Positions 2,509 to 58,769 of a stretch of DNA of 64,000 nucleotides are shown in pieces. Every line of letters starts with the position of its first letter. Positions within the stretch are counted from its first letter, which is position 1. This DNA is from Planktothrix mougeotii LEGE 06226 (GTDB lineage Bacteria; Cyanobacteriota; Cyanobacteriia; Cyanobacteriales; Microcoleaceae). The stretch spans positions 52,508-116,507 of the forward strand of contig NZ_JADEWU010000005.1 of the NCBI RefSeq assembly GCF_015207485.1, given 5' to 3'. A model generated the notes under the pieces. The model was given only the letters and a program-made list of their open reading frames with translations, ran no database searches and was not told where the DNA came from. Both the position numbers and the translations under genes were made by a program.

Positions 2509-3162
2509 TTAGCGGAAAAGAATATCCGATTGTAAGGTTAAATTCAGGTCTTCACTGGGACGAACTACGACAACATCGACTTTCCGACGTCCGACGAAGA
2601 CTCCGGTAATGGCACCGAGTCCCGCACCGCCTAACACTTCTTCGGTGGCGATCGCATTATCGCCAACAATAGCACCAATCGCCGTCGCCGCTGCTGCTCC
2701 AATGGCTGCTCCCCCTAGAATAGACCGGGCTGAAGCTCCTTTGCGAATGGTTTCTGTGCGAGTCACCACTTGAGAATTAGCATCTAAGCGGAATCTTTGT
2801 CCAGCACTAATAATCACTTCATTGGCGACAAATTGAGAGCCCCCGGAAGCGGGTTTTAATTGTCCGACAATTTCAGCCCCGGCGGGAATCCAAACTCGTC
2901 CTTGGCTGGTGACAACATTTTGTGCTACCGTCATCGTTAAAGGAACGGTTTCATTGGGCATGACCACAATTTTTTCAGCTTCTGGATATTCGACTGAAAT
3001 TACAGTTCCTGCTAAGATTCTATCCCGTTGTAAGGTATTGGGAAAGGATTGAGCCGTGGCTGGAATTCCGGGTAGTAAAGGGATAGCCACCGCCGTTGTT
3101 AAACCGAATGCTAGAAAAATTGATAATCCTGAACGCGAAAATTTAGAAATGAACATAAACAC
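2509..3162 (-). CDS. Secreted protein with a C-terminal glycine-zipper (Gly/Ala-rich) region
   Basis: Signal peptide, and a GGAAIGAAAATAIGAIVG...GGAGLGAITG glycine-zipper-like stretch. Confidence 0.55.
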   Translation of the reverse strand: MFMFISKFSRSGLSIFLAFGLTTAVAIPLLPGIPATAQSFPNTLQRDRILAGTVISVEYPEAEKIVVMPNETVPLTMTVAQNVVTSQGRVWIPAGAEIVGQLKPASGGSQFVANEVIISAGQRFRLDANSQVVTRTETIRKGASARSILGGAAIGAAAATAIGAIVGDNAIATEEVLGGAGLGAITGVFVGRRKVDVVVVRPSEDLNLTLQSDILFR

Positions 3163-14483: not shown

Positions 14484-15202
14484 TAAATTTTAAGATATTG
14501 TATTTGACATTAGATTACCAAAAACAGAGCCAGGGAAGCCCGGTGAGAACAGAACAAGCAGAGGGAGGGGAAAGCATTAACTTCTGACTCCGTACTCTTG
14601 CGTCAACCGCTAACCGATAAATAAAGGGTTTGCTGTTTAACCCACTCGGTACTTGACCCACTACGAATGACTAGACTTTCAGCCTTTGAGTCGGTTTGAG
14701 TAAGTTGCGTTGAGCGGTACAAATAATGTGATAATGCTTAGTGAGCGAAGATCGGGCTTGCCGTTGTCAAGCGGAGTCAGGAACCTCAGCCTAAAGGCAT
14801 GAGGCTTGAAAGAGAAATCTGACAAGTCATTCTGACCAGCCTAAGTCTTAACTGACTACGTTTTTTGAGTCACGACACCCAGCGAATGCGTAGCTAGTTC
14901 CTGGCTCTGTCATTTGCAGTTAAACAGTTTTAAGGTCACTGAAACAGTGCTGCAAGTCTAAAAAGCTCTTAAAACTTTGGCGTTCGCGTAGCGTGTGCGA
15001 AGCACTCAGCTAACATCACCCCGCAAGGGAGGCTCGAAAGAGCAAAATGCTATGCGTACAGGGTTGGAAGATTTGAAACAGTAATTGTCCTGTTGAAAGT
15101 GCAATTGCATTGGTACACCGAGTTAACTAGCCCCAAGGCGGTAGTATTCAAAAACAAGATAAAGCCGTTCTCAAAGAACGGGGTTTCAAACCCAAATTTT
15201 CG

Positions 15203-22509: not shown

Positions 22510-25500
22510 ATGATCACTTTACCTGGCTATCAGATTCTTAACCCGATTTATAATGGTTCGAGAACACTGGTTTATCGTGGGATTCGTTTGTCTGATGGTT
22601 ACCCGGTTGTGATTAAACTATTACGCAGTGAATATCCAACCGTACCCTCCCTGATTGAATTTAGAAATCAATATCGCATTGCCAAAGCTCTTAATATATC
22701 CGGTATTGTTCCGATTCTGGATTTAGAACCCTATTGTAATGGGTTTGCCTTGATTATGGCTGATCAAGGCTATATTTCACTAGCCGATTATTTAGTACAG
22801 CGAGAACTAACCTTAAGTGAATTATTAAAAATTGCCATTGAAATTACTCAAATTTTAGAACAATTGTATCAACATCGGGTCATTCATAAAGATGTTAAGC
22901 TGCAAAATATTTTAATTCACCCGGAAACTTTGAGGGTTCAACTGATTGATTTTAGTATTTCTATTCAACTCAATCATTCCCATCAAGAAGTTGTTAATTC
23001 TCAAGGATTAGAAGGAACTTTAGCTTATATGTCTCCCGAACAAACCGGACGAACCCATTGGGGTATTGATTATCGCACAGATTTGTATTCTTTAGGAGTA
23101 ACCCTTTATCAATTATTAACTCGAAAACTTCCGTTTCCATCTTCTGATCCCCTAGAGTTAATTCATGCTCATTTAGCCTTACTTCCTCAGCCTTTAAGCA
23201 AAATTAAACCAACCTTACCGATAATGCTCAATAATATTATTTTAAAATTGATGGCTAAAAATCCAGAGGAGCGTTATCAAACTCCATTAGGACTGCGCTA
23301 TGATTTAGAAAATTGTTTAGAACAATGGGAAAAGCTGGGGGATATTCCGACCTTTCCTTTGGCGACGATTGACTTAAATGATCGATTTATTATTCCGAAT
23401 AAATTTTATGGGCGAGTGCCAGAAATTGAGCGTTTAAATTCGATTTTAAACAAAGCTCAATCGGAAATTATTGTAATTACAGGTCAATCAGGAATAGGCA
23501 AGTCTGCCCTCGTTCAAGAATTCTATCAAACCGTGGCATATTGTCGAACAGGAGTTTTGCCTGTAACTCCTTGTGTCACCTTAGAGAGTTATTTTATCAC
23601 CGGAAAATTTGATCAATTTAAAACGAATACGCCTTTCTGGGGATGGGTACAAGGGATTAAACAATTAATTCAACAAGTGTTAACTGAACCTTTGGAACAG
23701 GTAGAAGCTTGGAAAAAGAAACTTTTAAATGGACTCGGAGATCAAGCCCCGGTTTTAATGGCTGTTATTCCTGAACTGAAAGTTTTATTAAATCAACAGT
23801 CTTCCCTGACTGAATTGGAGGTCAAAATTGACCTGAATCAGTTTAATCGCTTAATTCAAAAGCTAATTCAAACTTTTGCCCAACCTCATCATCCCTTAGT
23901 CATTTTTTTAGATGATTTACAATGGGCTGATGTTGAATCCTTACGATTAATTCAGGTTTTGATGAGTCCTGAACAAAATATTTATTCTACACCTCCCACC
24001 TTAGTGTTAATTTTAGCGTATCGGGATGACGAGATCGGGGAAACCCATCCTTTAATTAAAATCTTAGAAACCTTAGAAAATTCAGGAATTCCCTTACATC
24101 GAATTCCTTTAAATGCTTTAGAAGATTCTGCCATTAATCAACTGATAGCAGAAACATTAGTTTGTTCCTTAGACCGGGCTAAACCTTTGGCAGAATTAGT
24201 CAGTCAAAAAACACAAGGAAATCCTTTTTTTGTTCGTCAATTTCTCCAATCCTTATACACAGAAGAACTAATTTGGTTTAATCCGCCTCAATCTTCGTTG
24301 AAAAATCGAAATTTATTCGGAGGTTGGCAATGTAATTTAACTCAAATTAAAACCCGTTCTATTAACTCTAATATTTTAGATTTAATTCTTCATCAATTAC
24401 AACAATTACCGCCAGATACCCAAGAAATTTTAAAAATTGCGGCTTGTTTAGGAAATCAATTTAATGCAGTAGATTTAGCCACCTCAACTCAAAAAACTTA
24501 TTTAGAAACATTAAAAGCTTTAGAAATTGCTTTACAGGCTCAATTTATTGTTATTGCTAGAGATATTTATCCCTTTTATTCCTTAGAAACCGAAGTATCT
24601 TCCCCTTCACACTTTGATCCGAATGAAACCTTACCGTTGTTACAACCCGGTATTGATAAATACCAATTTATTCATGACCGGGTTCAACAAGCTGCTTATC
24701 TTTTAATTCCAACTCATCAACGACAAGCGACCCATTTGAAAATCGGAAATTCCCTTTTAAATCAAATTAAAAAACAATATTTTAATCAATCCATTAAGAT
24801 GATTTTAAATATCATTTCAACCGAAGTTTTATTAAATATTATTAATCAACTTAATTTAGGAGTCGGCTTAATTCAGGATCAAAAAGAACGAGATCAATTA
24901 GCCTTATTTAATTTAATAGCCGGACGAAAAGCGAAAATTGCCACCGCCTATCCGACAGCCATTGGACATTTAGCGATTGGTCTGGGGTTATTGGCAAGTG
25001 AAAGTTGGGAACGAGACTATCAATTAACCTTAGAATTATACACAGAAGCAGCAGAAATTGCTTATCTTAGTCAAGATTGGGAAAATTTACAGAAGTGGGG
25101 AAATATTGTTTTAGAAAATGCTAAAATATTAGGACATAAAGTAAGAATTTATGAGTTAATGATTCAAGCTTATAGAAACCAAAATCAAGATCAAAATGCG
25201 GTCAATCTTGCATTAGCTGTTTGTCAACAATTAGGGGTTACCTGGGGTGATAATTTTAGTCAAGAAAGTTGGCAAAAATTTAAGCATAATTTTATGACTG
25301 ATTTAGGGGGAAGAACACCCTTAGCGTTATTAGATTTACCCGAATTATCCGATACTAATTTAGTAAATTTATTTACAATTTTAACCTCTGCTTTTCCTTC
25401 CGCTTATCGGGTAATTCCCGAACAATTCCCATTTTGGGTTTTAAAACTCATTCATTTATCCTATCAACAAGGAAATACAACGTTATCAAGTTTTGTCTAT

Positions 25501-28500
25501 GCTGTCTTTGGATTTATTCTTTGTACCCAAGGGGAAATTGAGTTCGGGAATCAAATGGGAGAATTAGCTTTAGAATTATCGCAAAAACAAGCAAATTCCG
25601 CATTCATTATCAAAATTAAACAACTGGTTTATCGGTTTATTAAACCTTGGAAAACTTCCTTAAAGCAGGTTTTATCTCCCCTCAAAACTTGCTATTTACA
25701 AGCTCAAGAAGCTGGGAAAATTGATGAAGCTTATTGTCTCGCTCAAGCTTATCTTGAAATCGCTTATTTCACAGGAAAGGATGTCTCTGAATTGGAGCTT
25801 GAATTGAGTCAGTGTTTAAATCAATTACAAAATTTTAAATGTCCGTCAGAACTATTAATTTTTACCACCTATCATCAAAGCTTGCAAATTTTAAATGGAA
25901 AATTAGAGGGAGACACCTCATTAAATTTTACAGGTTATGCTGAAAATGGCACAATAGGAACGACTGAAATTGGATATTCGACCCAGGAAATTTCTTTTGA
26001 ACTTAGTTTAAATTTCATGGTTCTGAATTATAGATTAGATAAATTACAACAGGCGAAGGAATGGTCTCAGCAAGCTGAATACTATTTAAACCAAGACACC
26101 TATTTTGTTTTACAACCGTTTTTTTATTGTTATCAATCTTTAATTGATTTAGCAATCTACCCGGAGTTATCGCCGGAAGACCAAGTTAAAATTTTAGAAA
26201 AAGTAACTCAAAACCAAGAAAAATTAAAAGCTTTTTCTCAGGGGACTCCGATGAACTTTTCCCATCTATTTTATTTGGTGGAGGCAGAATTTAACCACAT
26301 TCAAGGAGATTATATTAAAGCCATTGAAGCCTATGAACAAGCGATTACTTTAGCTAAAACCTATCAATTTATTCAAGAAGAAGCGTTAGCAGAGGAATTA
26401 GCGGCTAAATTTTATTTAGATTGGGGGAAAGAAAAAATAGCCCGGGTTTATTTAATTGATGCCTATTATAGTTATGCTCATTGGGGTGCTTTGGCAAAAG
26501 TCAAAGATTTAGAATCTCGTTATCCTCAACTTTTACATTCTATTTTATCACAACTTGTTATTCCTACAACAGGAACAACAATCAGTAATAATGCTACAGA
26601 AACTATTATTTCTAGTAGTCATGGAGGTTCGGCTGCTCTCGATTTAGCAACGGTGACAAAAGCTTCTCAAGCTTTATCTCAAGAAATCGATTTAGAACAA
26701 CTTTTGAAACGATTAATTCAAGTGGTAATTGAAAACGCAGGAGCCGAAAAATGTTGTATTCTTTTATCTAAATCAGGAAAATTAGCGATAGAAGCAATAG
26801 CCAGTTTAAACCCGATGAACGGAGGGTCTATTGAGATTGAATCCTTATTAAAATCCGTTTCTGTAGAACAAAGTAATGCCTTACCTTTGTTAATTTTAAA
26901 TACCGTGATTCAAACCCAAGAGTTTATGATTTTAGCAGATGCTCGTCAAGAATCTCGGTATCGTAATGATCCTTATTTAATAGAACATCAATCTAAATCA
27001 ATCCTCATGACTCCCATTCAAAATCGAGGAAAATTGATTGGAATTCTATACCTTGAAAATAACTTAGCAACCGCAGTGTTTACTCCAGAACGATTAGAAG
27101 TCCTCAAAATTCTGTTTTCTCAAGCCGCGATTTCCATTGATAATGCGAAACTTTATTCTCAAGTTCGTAATAATGAACAACAGATGACGCAATTCTTAGA
27201 AGGAATTCCGGTTGGCGTTGCTGTTTTAGACCCTACGGGTAAACCCTATTTTACCAATCAAAAAGCTCAACAATTGCTCAAAACTAAAGTCACTCCTGGA
27301 TTATTTTGTGAAGCTTTATCTAATATTTATCAAGCTTATCTCAATTGGTGTCAACAGCATCAATTTGATCAATTAACACCTTATTGTGATTTATATAATC
27401 CTACACCCGATACCACGTTTATTTTAGAAGTGAATCAAGGAGAACAAACGATATTGCTTGAAAATTGGGTAACACCGACTTATGATGAAGAGGGGGATTT
27501 AATGTATGCGATTCTGGCGTTTCAAGATATCACAAAACGTCAGCAAACAGAACTGGCTTTAAGACAAGCCGAAGAAAAATATCGCAGTATATTTGAAAAT
27601 GCCAGTGAAGGCTTATTTCAAACCACCAGGGCGGGGCATTATATCAGTGCAAATCCTGCCTTAGCGAAGATTTTAGGTTATGATTCTCCTTGGGATTTAA
27701 TGTCAACGGTTATGAATGTTGAAGAACAAATTTATGTAGATTCTCAACGCCGATTAGATTTTATACAATTAATTGATCAACAAGGGGAAGTTTCAGGATT
27801 TGAATTTAAAGCCTACCGCAAAGATGGTAGCATTATTTGGATTTCAGAAAATGCACGGGCTGTCTTTAATGATCAGAATGAATTACTGTATTATGAAGGG
27901 TTTGTCGTTGATATTACAGAACGAAAAACTGCCGAAGAAGAACGCTTACAATTTATGGCAAAACTTTCAGAATTGAATCTTCATTTAGATGAAGCGTTAG
28001 ATTCGGAATTTGAACTAACGGATGCGGCGGCGCGATTTGTTCCCCATGAATTTCTATCTTTTTTAGGTTATGAAAGTATTGTAGAAGTTCAGTTAGGGGC
28101 GGCAGTTCAAAAGGAAATGTCGATTTTATTTGCTGATATTCGGGACTTTACCAGCCTTTCTGAAGGGATGACTCCTGAAGATAATTTTAAATTTATTAAT
28201 GCGTTTTTAAGTCGCATGGAACCTGCCATCGTCGAAAATTATGGTTTTATTGATAAATATATTGGGGATGAAATTATGGCATTATTTGGCGGGTCTGCTG
28301 ATGATGCAGTTCGGGCTGGGATTTCAATGATTAGCCGACTGAATGAGTATAATGAAACCCGACAACGCCCCGAACGTCCCCCGATTAAAATTGGAATTGG
28401 TATTAATACCGGAGGATTAATGTTAGGAATTGTGGGGGGTAAAAATCGACTGGATAGTACAGTGATTAGTGATTCTGTTAATGTGGCTTCTCGCATTGAG

Positions 28501-28836
28501 AATTTAACAAAAAATTATGGGGTGTCTTTATTAATTACCCATCCTACTTTTATGGCTTTAGGAAATGCCAACGAGTATGCAATTCGGATTATTGATCGAG
28601 TCAAAGTCAAAGGAAAATCTGATGCGGTAACGGTATATGAAGTATTTGATTCAGATTTGCCGGAAATAAAAGCCGGAAAACTTCGGACAAAAACCACCTT
28701 TGAATATGGATTAATGCAATATTATTTAGAATGTTACTCCGAGGCTGCTAGATTATTCCAAGAATGTCTACATTATCTTCCGATGGATAAAGTGGCTCAA
28801 ATTTATTTAGAACGCTGTTTATCTAAAATGTCCTAA
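22510..28836 (+). CDS. 2108-aa multidomain signalling protein: Ser/Thr protein kinase, P-loop NTPase (STAND/AAA_16-like), TPR-like alpha-solenoid, GAF, 2 PAS, class III adenylate/guanylate cyclase
   Basis: Kinase VVIK, HKDVKLQNIL, DFS, TLAYMSPEQ; P-loop ITGQSGIGKSAL with hhhhDD (IFLDDLQWAD); GAF (ILMTPIQNRGKLIGILYLEN); PAS; and a CHD cyclase (ILFADIRDFT, KYIGDEIMALFG, NTGGLMLGIVGG, NVASRIENL). Confidence 0.9.
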   Translation: MITLPGYQILNPIYNGSRTLVYRGIRLSDGYPVVIKLLRSEYPTVPSLIEFRNQYRIAKALNISGIVPILDLEPYCNGFALIMADQGYISLADYLVQRELTLSELLKIAIEITQILEQLYQHRVIHKDVKLQNILIHPETLRVQLIDFSISIQLNHSHQEVVNSQGLEGTLAYMSPEQTGRTHWGIDYRTDLYSLGVTLYQLLTRKLPFPSSDPLELIHAHLALLPQPLSKIKPTLPIMLNNIILKLMAKNPEERYQTPLGLRYDLENCLEQWEKLGDIPTFPLATIDLNDRFIIPNKFYGRVPEIERLNSILNKAQSEIIVITGQSGIGKSALVQEFYQTVAYCRTGVLPVTPCVTLESYFITGKFDQFKTNTPFWGWVQGIKQLIQQVLTEPLEQVEAWKKKLLNGLGDQAPVLMAVIPELKVLLNQQSSLTELEVKIDLNQFNRLIQKLIQTFAQPHHPLVIFLDDLQWADVESLRLIQVLMSPEQNIYSTPPTLVLILAYRDDEIGETHPLIKILETLENSGIPLHRIPLNALEDSAINQLIAETLVCSLDRAKPLAELVSQKTQGNPFFVRQFLQSLYTEELIWFNPPQSSLKNRNLFGGWQCNLTQIKTRSINSNILDLILHQLQQLPPDTQEILKIAACLGNQFNAVDLATSTQKTYLETLKALEIALQAQFIVIARDIYPFYSLETEVSSPSHFDPNETLPLLQPGIDKYQFIHDRVQQAAYLLIPTHQRQATHLKIGNSLLNQIKKQYFNQSIKMILNIISTEVLLNIINQLNLGVGLIQDQKERDQLALFNLIAGRKAKIATAYPTAIGHLAIGLGLLASESWERDYQLTLELYTEAAEIAYLSQDWENLQKWGNIVLENAKILGHKVRIYELMIQAYRNQNQDQNAVNLALAVCQQLGVTWGDNFSQESWQKFKHNFMTDLGGRTPLALLDLPELSDTNLVNLFTILTSAFPSAYRVIPEQFPFWVLKLIHLSYQQGNTTLSSFVYAVFGFILCTQGEIEFGNQMGELALELSQKQANSAFIIKIKQLVYRFIKPWKTSLKQVLSPLKTCYLQAQEAGKIDEAYCLAQAYLEIAYFTGKDVSELELELSQCLNQLQNFKCPSELLIFTTYHQSLQILNGKLEGDTSLNFTGYAENGTIGTTEIGYSTQEISFELSLNFMVLNYRLDKLQQAKEWSQQAEYYLNQDTYFVLQPFFYCYQSLIDLAIYPELSPEDQVKILEKVTQNQEKLKAFSQGTPMNFSHLFYLVEAEFNHIQGDYIKAIEAYEQAITLAKTYQFIQEEALAEELAAKFYLDWGKEKIARVYLIDAYYSYAHWGALAKVKDLESRYPQLLHSILSQLVIPTTGTTISNNATETIISSSHGGSAALDLATVTKASQALSQEIDLEQLLKRLIQVVIENAGAEKCCILLSKSGKLAIEAIASLNPMNGGSIEIESLLKSVSVEQSNALPLLILNTVIQTQEFMILADARQESRYRNDPYLIEHQSKSILMTPIQNRGKLIGILYLENNLATAVFTPERLEVLKILFSQAAISIDNAKLYSQVRNNEQQMTQFLEGIPVGVAVLDPTGKPYFTNQKAQQLLKTKVTPGLFCEALSNIYQAYLNWCQQHQFDQLTPYCDLYNPTPDTTFILEVNQGEQTILLENWVTPTYDEEGDLMYAILAFQDITKRQQTELALRQAEEKYRSIFENASEGLFQTTRAGHYISANPALAKILGYDSPWDLMSTVMNVEEQIYVDSQRRLDFIQLIDQQGEVSGFEFKAYRKDGSIIWISENARAVFNDQNELLYYEGFVVDITERKTAEEERLQFMAKLSELNLHLDEALDSEFELTDAAARFVPHEFLSFLGYESIVEVQLGAAVQKEMSILFADIRDFTSLSEGMTPEDNFKFINAFLSRMEPAIVENYGFIDKYIGDEIMALFGGSADDAVRAGISMISRLNEYNETRQRPERPPIKIGIGINTGGLMLGIVGGKNRLDSTVISDSVNVASRIENLTKNYGVSLLITHPTFMALGNANEYAIRIIDRVKVKGKSDAVTVYEVFDSDLPEIKAGKLRTKTTFEYGLMQYYLECYSEAARLFQECLHYLPMDKVAQIYLERCLSKMS

Positions 28837-28850
28837 GTCTTTGATATGAT

Positions 28851-29390
28851 TTGAACAATCCTTTGTGTTTTGAACCATTACCCAGTATGAGCGATTTGTA
28901 TATTTCAGCGACGGAATACCACCACAAAATTGAAACCTTAGCGGTAAAAATTTATCAGTCTCAATGGCAATTTAATCAAATTGTCTGTTTAGCGAGGGGA
29001 GGGTTACGAGTCGGGGATATTCTGTCTCGGATTTTTGAACAACCGATGGCGATTTTAGCAACATCATCCTATCATGGGCCAGGGGGAAAAGTTCGAGGCG
29101 CGATCAAAATTGCTGAACACTTAACCATGACGACGGACACCTTGGGAAGTCACGTTTTATTAGTGGATGATTTAGTGGATTCTGGGATTAGTTTACAAGA
29201 ATCTATCCGTTGGTTGCAATCTCGTTATCCTCAAATCCAAGAGATGAAAACGGCGGTTCTCTGGTATAAAAGTTGTTCAGTAATGGCTCCCGATTATTTT
29301 GTCGATTATCTAGCGGATAACCCTTGGATTCATCAACCCTTTGAATGTTATGAAAACCTGAATTTAGCCGAGTTGGAACAACAGGGTTAA
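28851..29390 (+). CDS. gpt: Xanthine-guanine phosphoribosyltransferase
   Basis: Collinear with E. coli Gpt (LARGGL..G; the PRPP loop LLVDDLVDSG; C-terminal PWIHQPFE). It starts 14 bp after the cyclase gene stop, so is probably co-transcribed. Confidence 0.8.
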   Translation: MNNPLCFEPLPSMSDLYISATEYHHKIETLAVKIYQSQWQFNQIVCLARGGLRVGDILSRIFEQPMAILATSSYHGPGGKVRGAIKIAEHLTMTTDTLGSHVLLVDDLVDSGISLQESIRWLQSRYPQIQEMKTAVLWYKSCSVMAPDYFVDYLADNPWIHQPFECYENLNLAELEQQG

Positions 29391-29599
29391 ACAAGATGAC
29401 TAATCACTTTTTCTCACCCCCTGTTCCCTACTCCCAGTAAATCGCTGTTCCCTATTCCTCTCGATAGATTGCAAAATCTTAATTTTATCGATGTAAAATA
29501 TTTGATTTTCTTAACATCTGAGGAACACACAATTTTAAAATCCTGTGTTATCTTAAAAAATGTAAACACTGAACGCATTAAACCGTTTAGGGAGCCAAG

Positions 29600-29880
29600 G
29601 AGGTGATGCCCATGATTGAAAGTAGTAAACCCATGGGTCACCGGATTGGAAAATGCCGACTGTGCGCCGGGGCTGTCATCTAGTGCAAAGTTTGTGTTCA
29701 TTTAGGACACTCGCTGACCTAGATAACCGGACTCATACTAAATGATCTTCCGGCAGTCAGGTTCTAATCCAGGAGACCCGCTAGACCGCTCTTACCCTAT
29801 TGTGAAAGCAACTGCTAACACAAACTCTGGGTGAGAGCGGATAGTTATTTTAATCCTACATTTATTATCATTTTAAAGTA
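29600..29880 (+). promoter_or_regulatory. Candidate structured cis-regulatory RNA: a B12-box-like core (CCAGGAGACC at 29769-29778) downstream of a long stem (GGTGATGCCCATG...CATGGGTCACC), followed by terminator-like stems (CCGCTCTTACCC at 29786-29797 with GGGTGAGAGCGG at 29829-29840, then a T-tract) immediately 5' of the 29885 ORF
   Basis: The 10-mer matches the cobalamin-riboswitch B12 box core, GCCGACTG resembles the conserved GCCACTG, and the expression-platform-like hairpin plus U-tract ends 5 nt before the downstream start. The other cobalamin consensus blocks are poorly matched, so the class is uncertain. Confidence 0.25.
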
Positions 29881-29884
29881 GCCC

Positions 29885-51402: not shown

Positions 51403-53238
51403 ATGTACATGAATGATTATCTCAAAAACCAACAAAGACACTTTATTCAGCGCCTCAAAACTGGATTAAACAGTTTATACCGTTATGAAAAACTTGGATA
51501 TGGAGAAATTAAAACCCTTTCGGGTCAGGACTTAAACCCCATTCGTCAACACGCTTGGGATATGGTTAGAAAATATCGGAAAGCTGACCCTCAAGTCGTT
51601 TTCAGAAATACTCTGATGGGGAAACTGGGAGAAGAAATCGTTAAAAAATGTTTAGGGGATTCTGTAAGTTATATTAACTATGAAATTATCCCAGACAGTG
51701 GGGATGGCCGTGTTGATCTCCGTATTCATACGGATGATTCCATTGGCATTCAAGTGAAAACCCGCTATAGTTTCCCCAGCACTGCCCAATGGTGGATCAG
51801 TTGGGAAGAAATGACTCAAAATCAAGCTATTGTTTGTATTTTAATTTATTCCGATTCTCAAAATAGTATTAAATTTGATGAGTTTAAATCCGAATATTCC
51901 GCCATTATTGCTGGGTTTCTTCCCGCCCGTTTACTTCAGAAGCGTATTGAACAAAAAGAAATCAGTTTAGAATATTATCAAAATAAAAGTATTGTTAAAT
52001 TGCAGATTAATGATTTACATTACGGCGAAGGATTGGAGTTTTTTTTAAAAGGCTTAACCAATAATCCTGATTTTTACCTAGAATCTGGGTTAAATTGTGC
52101 TGAACAACAGGGAGATTATCAAACCGCCATTAAAAATTATACGAAAGCATTACAACTACAACCTACTTATGCAGATGCTTATCGTTATCGCGGAATAGCT
52201 TACTTTAAAATAGGTCAAAAACAGGCAGCTATTGATAATTTATTAGATGCTTCCGATTTATATTCTAAACAAGGGAATATTAATGCAGTTCAAGAAATTA
52301 ATTTGATGATTCGAGATGTTCAAAAAATTAATGAACCTCTCTCAACCGTCGAAAAATGGAATTGTATCCAAACTCTAAAACTCCATTCCGCTAATATTTT
52401 TTGCTGTACTATCAGCACCAACGGTCAAATTTTAGTCACCGGAAGTAAAGATAAAAGTGTTAAAGTTTTAAATCCTCAAACCGGAGAATTGTTACACACC
52501 TTTACTGGACATCACGATCATATTTATGCCGTTGCTATTAGTCCCAATTCTTCTATAATAGCCAGTGGGAGTTGTGATAATACTATAAAACTCTGGAATT
52601 TAAAAACCGGAGCATTAATCAAAACTATTAAAGTGCATTCTCATTATATTACCAGTTTAAAATTTACGCCCGATGGCGAAAACTTAATTAGTGGCTGTTG
52701 GGATTATACCGTGCAGTTATGGAAAGTCGCCACCGGAGAAAACCTCAGAACCCTTTATAAACATTCTGGGGCTGTTGATTGTGTCGATATGACTTCTAAT
52801 TGGGATTTTATTGTTAGTGGGGGAAGGGATAGAAAAGTGATGATTTGGGACTTGAGAAATATGAAAATTTGCCGAACTTTAGTTCAACGATTTTATATCC
52901 GATCTTTAGCCATTAGTCCCGATAATCAATTTATTGTCACGAGTAGCGATGATGGTAAACTGTTTATTTGGAATCTGCAAAAAGGTCAACTGATTCGCAC
53001 GTTAAATCACCATAAAAATTGCGTTTATACCGTTGCAATTAGTCCTGATGGTAATAGAATAGCCAGTGGTAGCTCTGATCAAACGATTAATATCTGGAAT
53101 TTACACACTGGAGAATTAATCGAGAGTTTAAACCCTCAAGGTGGCGCGATTTATTCCGTTACTTTTATTACCCCCGATGGTCATACTTTCGCCAGTAGTC
53201 ATGGAGATGGAAGCATTAAAATTTGGAAACAGAGTTAG
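51403..53238 (+). CDS. Multidomain protein: N-terminal uncharacterised (possibly nuclease-fold) domain, TPR, then 7-8 WD40 repeats
   Basis: TPR (YADAYRYRGIAYFKIGQ) and WD40 repeats (GHHDHIYAVAISPN..ASGSCDNTIKLWNL etc.). Confidence 0.85.
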   Translation: MYMNDYLKNQQRHFIQRLKTGLNSLYRYEKLGYGEIKTLSGQDLNPIRQHAWDMVRKYRKADPQVVFRNTLMGKLGEEIVKKCLGDSVSYINYEIIPDSGDGRVDLRIHTDDSIGIQVKTRYSFPSTAQWWISWEEMTQNQAIVCILIYSDSQNSIKFDEFKSEYSAIIAGFLPARLLQKRIEQKEISLEYYQNKSIVKLQINDLHYGEGLEFFLKGLTNNPDFYLESGLNCAEQQGDYQTAIKNYTKALQLQPTYADAYRYRGIAYFKIGQKQAAIDNLLDASDLYSKQGNINAVQEINLMIRDVQKINEPLSTVEKWNCIQTLKLHSANIFCCTISTNGQILVTGSKDKSVKVLNPQTGELLHTFTGHHDHIYAVAISPNSSIIASGSCDNTIKLWNLKTGALIKTIKVHSHYITSLKFTPDGENLISGCWDYTVQLWKVATGENLRTLYKHSGAVDCVDMTSNWDFIVSGGRDRKVMIWDLRNMKICRTLVQRFYIRSLAISPDNQFIVTSSDDGKLFIWNLQKGQLIRTLNHHKNCVYTVAISPDGNRIASGSSDQTINIWNLHTGELIESLNPQGGAIYSVTFITPDGHTFASSHGDGSIKIWKQS

Positions 53239-58336: not shown

Positions 58337-58769
58337 GACTCAGGGGAATTTATTCCCCGTGAATATTGGATTGGGAACCGACAAAAATTGTTGTATTTGC
58401 TGATTCCCGGTTTTTTAGGATTTCTCCCACTCTGATTTCTCAGGTAAAGTTAGCTTCGCCAATGTTATCGGTCGGTAACTATCCCAAAAGCACTGTCTTA
58501 CCCCTCGTAAAACTGTTTAACTTTCGAGTTCCAGAGCAACGGACTAGCTACGCATCCATTGGTGGGTCTTTAACACTTACCGATAACGTAGCCATTAGGC
58601 TCAGGCTGGTCAACTAACTAAAGCTAGAGGCTTGAAGCCCCGTCACTTCAGTGCGGGGTGCTGACAATTCCACCTGACAACGTTCTCTTGGGTCGAGCTT
58701 TCATGGGCTCAACGTTATTAACTTAGACGTTACTTTAATTATAGCAATCCTAAGTCAGATTCCAAACAC

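Follow-up and report, generated by a model that had tools for sequence, protein, structure and literature searches.

Cyanobacterial small RNAs (sRNAs) can accumulate alone and also form the 5' part of a read-through mRNA for which they are dispensable, an arrangement called the actuaton and exemplified by Yfr2c-sll1477, SyR9-sll0208 and Ncr0700-ssr2227 (Kopf and Hess 2015, PMC6596454). Here we examined a structured element in a stretch of 64,000 nucleotides from Planktothrix mougeotii LEGE 06226 (NZ_JADEWU010000005.1, positions 52,508 to 116,507, forward strand; hereafter the window, whose own positions are used throughout). The element lies between a phosphoribosyltransferase gene and a gene for pterin-4a-carbinolamine dehydratase (PCD). 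A preliminary description of this DNA had proposed a riboswitch controlling PCD and had named a different RNA, such as an sRNA, as a fallback. Free-standing copies with their own promoter and terminator motifs point to the fallback: with a probability of roughly 0.6, the element is a free-standing sRNA gene conserved across cyanobacteria, a translated small RNA or mini-mRNA that stands in an actuaton arrangement with PCD.

Like the actuaton sRNAs, the element has its own promoter and terminator motifs and lies directly upstream of a gene in sense orientation, with no room for a promoter between the two. The same family is free-standing elsewhere, and the RNA part would be dispensable for the mRNA, to judge from locus L001 (below). 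Unlike those sRNAs, it is unrelated in sequence to the Rfam-listed cyanobacterial sRNAs and carries a perfect Shine-Dalgarno (SD) sequence followed by a 23-codon frame that is conserved. The link with PCD is kept across many orders, which sets the element apart from strain-specific actuatons.

Dual-function sRNAs such as SgrS/SgrT, SR1/SR1P and RNAIII/delta-haemolysin offer a second comparison (cited in PMC6596454, PMC5126843). Like these, the element combines a short, terminator-ended predicted transcript with a ribosome-binding site, a tiny open reading frame (ORF) and conserved structure beyond coding need; unlike them, most of its ORF is one strand of a conserved hairpin. AzuCR/AzuC is a further dual-function sRNA that bears a small ORF.

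PmgR1/Ncr0700 of Synechocystis is very abundant, widely conserved and outside Rfam; it stands alone in one strain and belongs to an actuaton in a second. The present RNA resembles it in being conserved in many cyanobacteria, absent from Rfam, and free-standing or chimeric. The two differ in that the PmgR1 3' end does not have the invariant GCGGATAG box, and the primer-derived segments of PmgR1 (5' 35 nt, internal 20 nt, 3' 21 nt) gave no match to the RNA family above shuffled controls. Identity with PmgR1/Ncr0700, compared through primer-derived segments only, is unlikely. We found no published description of the RNA in the literature. A 2026 catalogue of 409 unnamed conserved cyanobacterial structures could contain it, and the main text of that catalogue mentions none of PCD, psbD or porin; the alr4548-asr4549 spacer is missing from the supplementary lists of a paper that predicted Nostoc sRNAs.

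The spacer from the phosphoribosyltransferase stop codon (29390) to the PCD start codon (29885) measures 494 bp, as had been described, and its reported richness in long stems was confirmed. The + strand of 29580-29890 folded at -110 kcal/mol, against -81 ± 5 kcal/mol for 100 shuffled sequences (z -5.66), and none of the shuffles folded as well; the - strand of the same segment reached a z of -2.43. Guanine-plus-cytosine (GC) content was 48% in 29600-29850 compared with 39% in the window. No second copy of the structured segment was found in the window, and a reading as a repeat or miniature inverted-repeat element was therefore dropped. Given the + strand fold score, the GC contrast and the single copy, the description of a structured + strand RNA is well founded.

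Homologues were collected in two ways. The PCD-anchored set comprised 80 loci, one genome per species, in which the element was located by blastn. The RNA-anchored scan searched metagenome contigs with a 26-base pattern taken from the RNA itself, without a PCD anchor, and gave at least 120 loci carrying the motif. Alignment A1 held 31 representatives and was used for the RNAalifold consensus fold; alignment A2 held 87 sequences at less than 90% identity and was used for the covariation test. In the consensus fold a single long hairpin is followed by a terminator, with the following parts 5' of the terminator:

29580-29593, + strand: conserved leader box AAACCGTTTAGGGA, its CC and AG at least 90% conserved in A1 and A2
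29608-29614 (GCCCATG) / 29632-29638 (CATGGGT), + strand: candidate hairpin P1, from RNAalifold, enclosing the start codon of the small ORF
29635-29779, + strand: long hairpin, from RNAalifold and covariation, with ORF codons 8-23 as its 5' arm
29635-29639/29775-29779, + strand: helix P0 (GGGTC with GACCC), the basal helix, alternative to P1
29642-29649/29764-29772, + strand: hairpin helix, RNAalifold on A1
29655-29661/29755-29762, + strand: hairpin helix, RNAalifold on A1
29666-29672/29748-29754, + strand: hairpin helix, RNAalifold on A1
29676-29678/29741-29743, + strand: hairpin helix, RNAalifold on A1
29684-29740, + strand: variable hairpin apex

The covariation test used a 50-pair structure and 500 shuffles, with partner columns slid by 1-3 as a control. 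In the tested structure 95.7% of cells were paired, and both-side changes were seen in 27 of the 50 pairs (319 cells). None of the 500 shuffles reached any observed pairing or covariation measure, and pairing fell to 30-49% in the slid controls. Covariation supports both the long hairpin and the terminator, in whose stem 8 of 15 pairs had compensatory changes. P1 and P0 are mutually exclusive, and minimum-free-energy folds of single sequences favoured P0. The P1 loop is conserved (GAnAGTAGTAAA), and inspection revealed no covarying partner for it or for the leader box. Near-frozen blocks in A1 read, from 5' to 3', AAACCGTTTAGGGA, GGAGGTGATGCCCATG, GAnAGTAGTAAA, CATGGGTC and GCCGGCTGTGCGCCGGGGCTG...TCTAG; the variable apex is followed by TTCCTCCCGGCAGTCAGGTT..AATC..AGACCCGCTAGACCGC, then by a variable stem-loop and GCGGATAGTTTTT.

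Three loci (L088, L135, L164) form a divergent short subfamily, which keeps SD and ATG and has a much shorter hairpin and an ORF of 17 codons ending CTG TAG. One locus has two copies: a degenerate one (CAGCAGGTGATGCCCATGGAAGACCGTATCACGCTCGTGGGTAG...) at L050:2354-2640 lies ~285 nt upstream of the intact one and looks like a decaying tandem duplicate.

A metabolite riboswitch, either cobalamin-like or of a new pterin, folate or molybdenum cofactor (Moco) class, would control PCD by transcription termination. In its favour are a structured and conserved leader that ends in a terminator just before PCD, the conserved bulges of the hairpin (G at 29662 and G at 29664), and a local likeness to B12-box motifs. 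Both strings are present: the 10/10 match to the B12-box core, CCAGGAGACC, at 29769-29778, and the GCCACTG-like 8-mer, GCCGACTG, at 29655-29662. The 10-mer is nevertheless at chance level, with two occurrences in the window at up to one mismatch against 1.95 expected. It is also unconserved, since relatives read CTGAAGACCC, TCAGATGACCC or CAAGAGACCC in its place, and it is fully base-paired, being the 3' strand of two basal helices (P0 and the next) that covaries with 29635-29649. The 8-mer is the 5' strand of a helix paired to 29755-29762.

The cmscan search against Rfam, proposed as a check in the preliminary description, returned no riboswitch or other family at the element. No match reached the gathering score of Rfam 15 there in the window or in 20 homologous loci, and a search of 29350-29950 at E≤10 gave only chance-level, unrelated matches (STnc350, mir-987, small nucleolar RNAs). 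The covariance models for cobalamin, adenosylcobalamin variants, tetrahydrofolate, Moco, 6S, SRP, tmRNA and RNase P gave no match. For 6S RNA (RF00013) there was none even at E≤10, and the hairpin has small internal loops only, with no large central bubble. The multi-helix junction core and the long-range loop contact of the cobalamin class are absent from the consensus fold, which is not aptamer-like, and neither pseudoknot evidence nor an alternative expression platform was seen. Likeness to the cobalamin riboswitch (RF00174) is confined to the 10-nt string and the 8-mer; a covariance-model match and a B12-related gene context are absent, and the motif lies unconserved within a plain helix. 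About half of the listed RNA-anchored copies are unlinked to PCD, several being followed by convergent genes, and the strength of the terminator U-tract does not depend on whether PCD follows. A riboswitch, whether cobalamin-like, pterin/folate-type or otherwise attenuating, is very improbable at this locus.

The element has promoter and terminator signals at its two ends:

29526-29554, + strand: promoter, with extended -10 TGtTATCTT at 29546-29554 and weak -35 CACACA at 29526-29531
29561-29851, + strand: predicted primary transcript of ~290 nt, with ends placed from promoter and terminator
29780-29851, + strand: intrinsic terminator, with stem 29780-29796/29830-29845, invariant base CCGC...GCGGATAG, and U-tract TTATTTT ending at ~29851

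At the promoter position, TG-n-TAnnnT was found in most of the 31 representatives; the Microcoleus/Tychonema group showed no clear match. Several representatives carry a TTGACA-like -35 ~17 nt upstream of the extended -10, and the distance from promoter to SD varies from 45 to ~90 nt. The extended -10 predicts a transcription start site at ~29561. Some 50-100 nt upstream of that site, the blocks GATAGATTGCAAAATCTTAATTTTA and AAATATTTGATTTT (29463-29510) are conserved in L001 and Planktothrix as well as in the window, and a regulator of the sRNA promoter may bind there. A pseudo-palindrome, AACACACAATTTTA/TAAAATCCTGTGTT, lies at 29524-29549.

The hairpin and U-tract had been described as ending 5 nt before PCD, but the U-tract in fact ends at ~29851, 33 nt upstream of the PCD ATG. 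This tract is interrupted in the window (TTATTTT). A T-run of at least 4 follows the stem in 87-95% of homologues, whatever lies downstream, and the U-tract is equally strong with PCD within 120 nt, with PCD further off or with no PCD. A leakier terminator at PCD-linked loci was looked for in this comparison and rejected. A consensus terminator scan missed this terminator because its loop limit was 3-8 nt and the loop here is longer than 8 nt. In two Microcoleaceae metagenome-assembled genomes (MAGs; L007:2645-2935 and L055:2668-2958), where PCD follows after 49-72 nt, the U-tract has been lost (GTTATGTC, GTCATGAC) although the invariant stem of the terminator is intact, which suggests a role for the stem beyond termination.

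Conservation upstream of PCD orthologues, another check proposed at the outset, was evident: the element was directly upstream of PCD in 77 of the 80 PCD-anchored loci. Hosts include Planktothrix, Microcoleus, Lyngbya, Moorena, Nostoc, Prochloron, Chroococcidiopsis, Leptolyngbya-like strains and a Pseudanabaenaceae MAG. Among the 120 metagenome loci listed, PCD was within 1.5 kb downstream in 53 and absent in 56, and 11 left no room to judge. Neighbours were clustered over 197 loci among the matches listed: downstream were PCD in 125, an SLH/OprB porin in 98 and GAF/HD-GYP in 66, and psbD was upstream in 63. The conserved order is psbD - RNA - PCD - (HD-GYP) - SLH/OprB porin, and the psbD-PCD-porin order is that of alr4548 (psbD) - asr4549 (PCD) - alr4550 (porin) in Nostoc 7120. 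At several PCD-less loci a genuine gene follows in convergent orientation (GlpX fructose bisphosphatase, P-type ATPase, GyrB). Because about half of the listed RNA-anchored copies have no PCD and some face convergent genes, the RNA is a gene in its own right rather than a PCD-specific sensor.

In 22 of the 31 representatives, 25-71 nt separate the GCGGATAG box from the PCD start, and no conserved -10 for PCD was found in this gap. Since the gap is short and has no conserved -10, PCD is most probably dependent on transcription that reads through the terminator. A natural deletion variant bears on this point. L001, the closest relative by PCD identity (84%), has the same phosphoribosyltransferase-PCD-HD-GYP synteny and the same promoter. 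Compared with 29391-29884 of the window, its spacer (2802-3000) is missing ~285 nt, exactly the RNA body; the last ~25 nt before PCD are kept, and the promoter is ~30 nt from the PCD start.

Near its predicted 5' end the RNA carries initiation signals and a short frame:

29597-29607, + strand: SD AAGGAGGTGAT, 11 nt, complementary to the canonical 3' end of 16S rRNA
29612-29683, + strand: small ORF of 23 codons plus TAG (29681-29683), encoding MIESSKPMGHRIGKCRLCAGAVI, from frame conservation

The textbook 3' end of 16S rRNA served as the reference for AAGGAGGTGAT. GGAGGTG was invariant in 31/31 sequences of A1 and 87/87 of A2, and GGAGGTGAT occurs once in the 64-kb window. The SD ends 4 nt before the ATG, and its GGAGG core is 8 nt upstream of it. 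All 163 unique homologues have the ATG. Their ORF is 23 codons long in 152, 24 in 4, 22 in 3, 21 in 1 and 17 in 3, and stops with TAG in 90, TAA in 71 and TGA in 2. In PCD-anchored loci with both anchors placed, the frame is 22-24 codons and the stop is TAG or TAA. The conserved block stops exactly at the stop codon, which forms the border to the variable apex. Synonymous alternations are frequent (GAA/GAG, GAT/GAC, CAT/CAC, CAG/CAA, TGC/TGT, GGG/GGA, GCT/GCC, GTN). Three of five distinct indel events in the 72-nt ORF are of 3 nt, compared with none in multiples of three among 12 events in the paired 39-nt 3' arm, 9 of which are of 1 nt (3/5 vs 0/12, Fisher p ~0.015). Ribosome engagement at the 23-codon frame is likely on these comparisons. 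Peptide positions 10-15, which are less conserved, correspond to the most strongly covarying helix, and the near-frozen helices 29655-29672/29748-29762 fit a double constraint of coding and pairing.

The 23-aa peptide matched no Pfam or NCBIfam family. Ten peptide variants were looked up exactly in 15 billion predicted proteins; only the Planktothrix variant was present, as an unnamed 23-aa JGI/IMG gene call on 4 contigs. The C-terminal CAGAVL part is not universal, because the frame of the short subfamily ends after 17 codons.

The same observations can be set against a purely non-coding RNA, in which the SD-like sequence would be a 5' stabiliser that binds 30S subunits, or a seed or decoy, and the open frame a by-product of nucleotide conservation. 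STAB-SD in Bacillus cryIIIA is a 5' stabiliser of this type. All three codon positions are conserved in AGTAGTAAA, CTG and GCC, as expected of a non-coding RNA, and three variants tolerate an early stop behind codon 17. By rough estimate, a 23-codon open frame after an ATG arises by chance with a frequency of ~0.35, and conservation would then hold the frame; the 3-nt indels, moreover, lie in or beside the slippage-prone AGTAGT triplet repeat. Yet the GGAGG-ATG spacing of 8 nt suits initiation, with both elements invariant, and the in-frame asymmetry of indels is between arms of the same helices. The stop codon, alternating between TAG and TAA, stands at the border of conserved and variable sequence. 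We consider a purely non-coding RNA rather unlikely.

Several points weigh against a translated sRNA in an actuaton arrangement. Second codon positions are as variable as third positions; AGT AGT, CTG and GCC are almost never replaced by synonymous codons; codon 18 varies between C, R and W, and the three short variants end after codon 17. Peptide-level selection is, at the level of sequence, inseparable from RNA-level selection. The metagenome scan pattern includes both SD and ATG, so that only the 77 PCD-anchored loci are unbiased for these two features. P1 is paired in 95.9% of cells with zero compensatory changes, and P0 is ~96% compatible, likewise with none, because both are too conserved. 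In 1.3 Mb of neighbouring DNA, complements of the conserved loops are no more frequent than expected by chance, and no trans target was found there. Finally, an unrecognised PCD promoter could overlap the terminator.

A protein-coding - strand ORF at 29414-29701 (95 aa), with the RNA structure incidental, was also weighed. This frame, which the preliminary description had pointed out, exists in the window, and tblastn matched its residues 7-35 to relatives. The match merely reflects conserved nucleotides read in the reverse direction. In relatives the frame is broken by stops and has no conserved start, base pairs covary in the region, its 3' arm has indels of 1 nt, and the + strand folds much better. 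The ORF is not conserved as such, and the - strand coding interpretation is effectively refuted.

For the translated sRNA, a sequence of events can be proposed. Transcription would start at the element's own extended -10 promoter (~29561), and most transcripts would stop at its own intrinsic terminator (~29851), giving an RNA of ~290 nt. Close to the 5' end, an invariant, perfect SD and an AUG would open the 23-codon frame. On the P0 conformer both are predicted to be single-stranded, so that a ribosome could start freely. The translating ribosome would have to open ~30 conserved base pairs plus the apex, and the hairpin, once folded, would hide most of the frame. Because codons 8-23 are the hairpin 5' arm, translation and folding would be mutually exclusive. 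PCD, 33 nt downstream and without room for its own promoter, would be expressed from transcripts that read through the terminator. Transcript ends, actual translation and read-through are all deduced here from sequence features, and PCD is probably transcribed by such read-through.

A more specific version is possible, and we hold it tentatively: an ancient cyanobacterial, translation-gated dual-function RNA. In this version translation would unzip a hairpin of invariant sequence, so freeing the invariant 3' arm (CCGGCAGTCAGGTT...GACCCGC) to function in trans, or the 23-aa nascent peptide would be a sensor within the ribosome tunnel; the RNA would at the same time drive transcription of PCD. 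If this holds, the phylum would have no conserved protein-coding gene shorter than this ORF, whose 23 codons compare with the 29 aa of PetN.

The arrangement also invites comparison with leader-peptide attenuators of the trpL type and with the 24-aa arrest peptide TnaC. As in those leaders, a short upstream ORF with a strong ribosome-binding site precedes stem-loops and an intrinsic terminator before a metabolic gene, and the peptide is of tunnel length. Translation of, or stalling on, the 23-codon frame would then set terminator formation and hence expression of PCD, HD-GYP and porin. The order SD, ORF, hairpin, terminator directly upstream of PCD is as this explanation would have it, as are the tandem invariant AGT AGT codons. 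Synteny of RNA and PCD in 125 of the 197 listed loci, across orders with differing other neighbours, speaks in the same direction, and L001 shows one promoter serving PCD.

Against this stands the behaviour of the terminator. With the ORF region masked, the terminator persisted and no conserved competing helix, that is, no antiterminator, appeared in the alignment fold or in 7 single species. Classical attenuation is unsupported because masking the ORF never removes the terminator and exposes no competing helix. Some 100 nt lie between the end of the ORF and the terminator, many loci have this RNA alone or facing a convergent gene, and the U-tract is of the same strength with and without a downstream PCD. 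Unlike in those leaders, the frame has no regulatory codon runs, and none pointing to a PCD-related amino-acid signal, and the RNA also occurs without a downstream cistron. To our knowledge cyanobacteria lack Rho, so that a TnaC-like, Rho-blocking mechanism is not transferable. Attenuation by a leader peptide is, on balance, unlikely.

The proposed sRNA gene has the following neighbours in the window:

28851-29390, + strand: phosphoribosyltransferase ('gpt') gene, Pfam Pribosyltran; upstream neighbour, outside the RNA element
29885-30166, + strand: PCD gene, Pfam Pterin_4a, 7.6e-29
30267-31910, + strand: GAF/HD-GYP gene downstream of PCD, Pfam HD_5, HD and GAF; part of an Oscillatoriales syntenic block, following PCD in about 65 loci

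Synteny of gpt with the RNA element is confined to a Planktothrix-like group. Directly upstream of the phosphoribosyltransferase gene is a 2108-aa ORF (22510-28836, +) with, by eye, a Ser/Thr-kinase-like start and an adenylate/guanylate-cyclase-like end. A direct repeat, CTGTTCCCTACTCC / CTGTTCCCTATTCC, with 24-nt spacing, lies just past the phosphoribosyltransferase stop codon (29421-29458). The sole Rfam 15 matches in the window by cmscan were two full-length HEARO RNAs (RF02033) at 14776-15005 (+) and 58444-58665 (-), with scores of 139 and 149 bits where the gathering score is 83. HEARO is the guide RNA associated with IscB/HNH elements, which implies two mobile elements of the IscB/HNH type in the window.

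Many Microcoleus/Tychonema contigs (L008, L018, L025-L029, L036, L037, L041 and others) break off at a common distance from the element, ~640-1000 nt upstream of PCD, at psbD (Photo_RC). psbD is a two-copy gene in cyanobacteria, and assemblies of this group would break there for that reason. A cyanophage origin, prompted by the psbD neighbour, was rejected, with no matches in viral contigs. Two loci (L005, L049) carry the element and typical Oscillatoriales synteny, yet their labels name MAGs of 'Candidatus Obscuribacterales' and 'Actinomycetota'; in both cases cyanobacterial DNA has probably been mis-binned.

The analysis removes a false riboswitch lead and points to an RNA gene that annotation pipelines miss, as it is absent from Rfam and its small ORF is called on few JGI/IMG contigs only. 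If confirmed, this deeply conserved RNA gene, which ranges from Pseudanabaenaceae to Nostocales with a sequence nearly frozen over ~150 nt, would join the small phylum-wide set of sRNAs (Yfr1, Yfr2, PsrR1, 6S). Its unusual design, a perfect SD and a frame that is one strand of a covarying hairpin, would make it a natural system for competition between translation and folding. Transcription of PCD in many cyanobacteria, among them that of asr4549 in the Nostoc 7120 psbD-PCD-porin cluster, would find an explanation as well.

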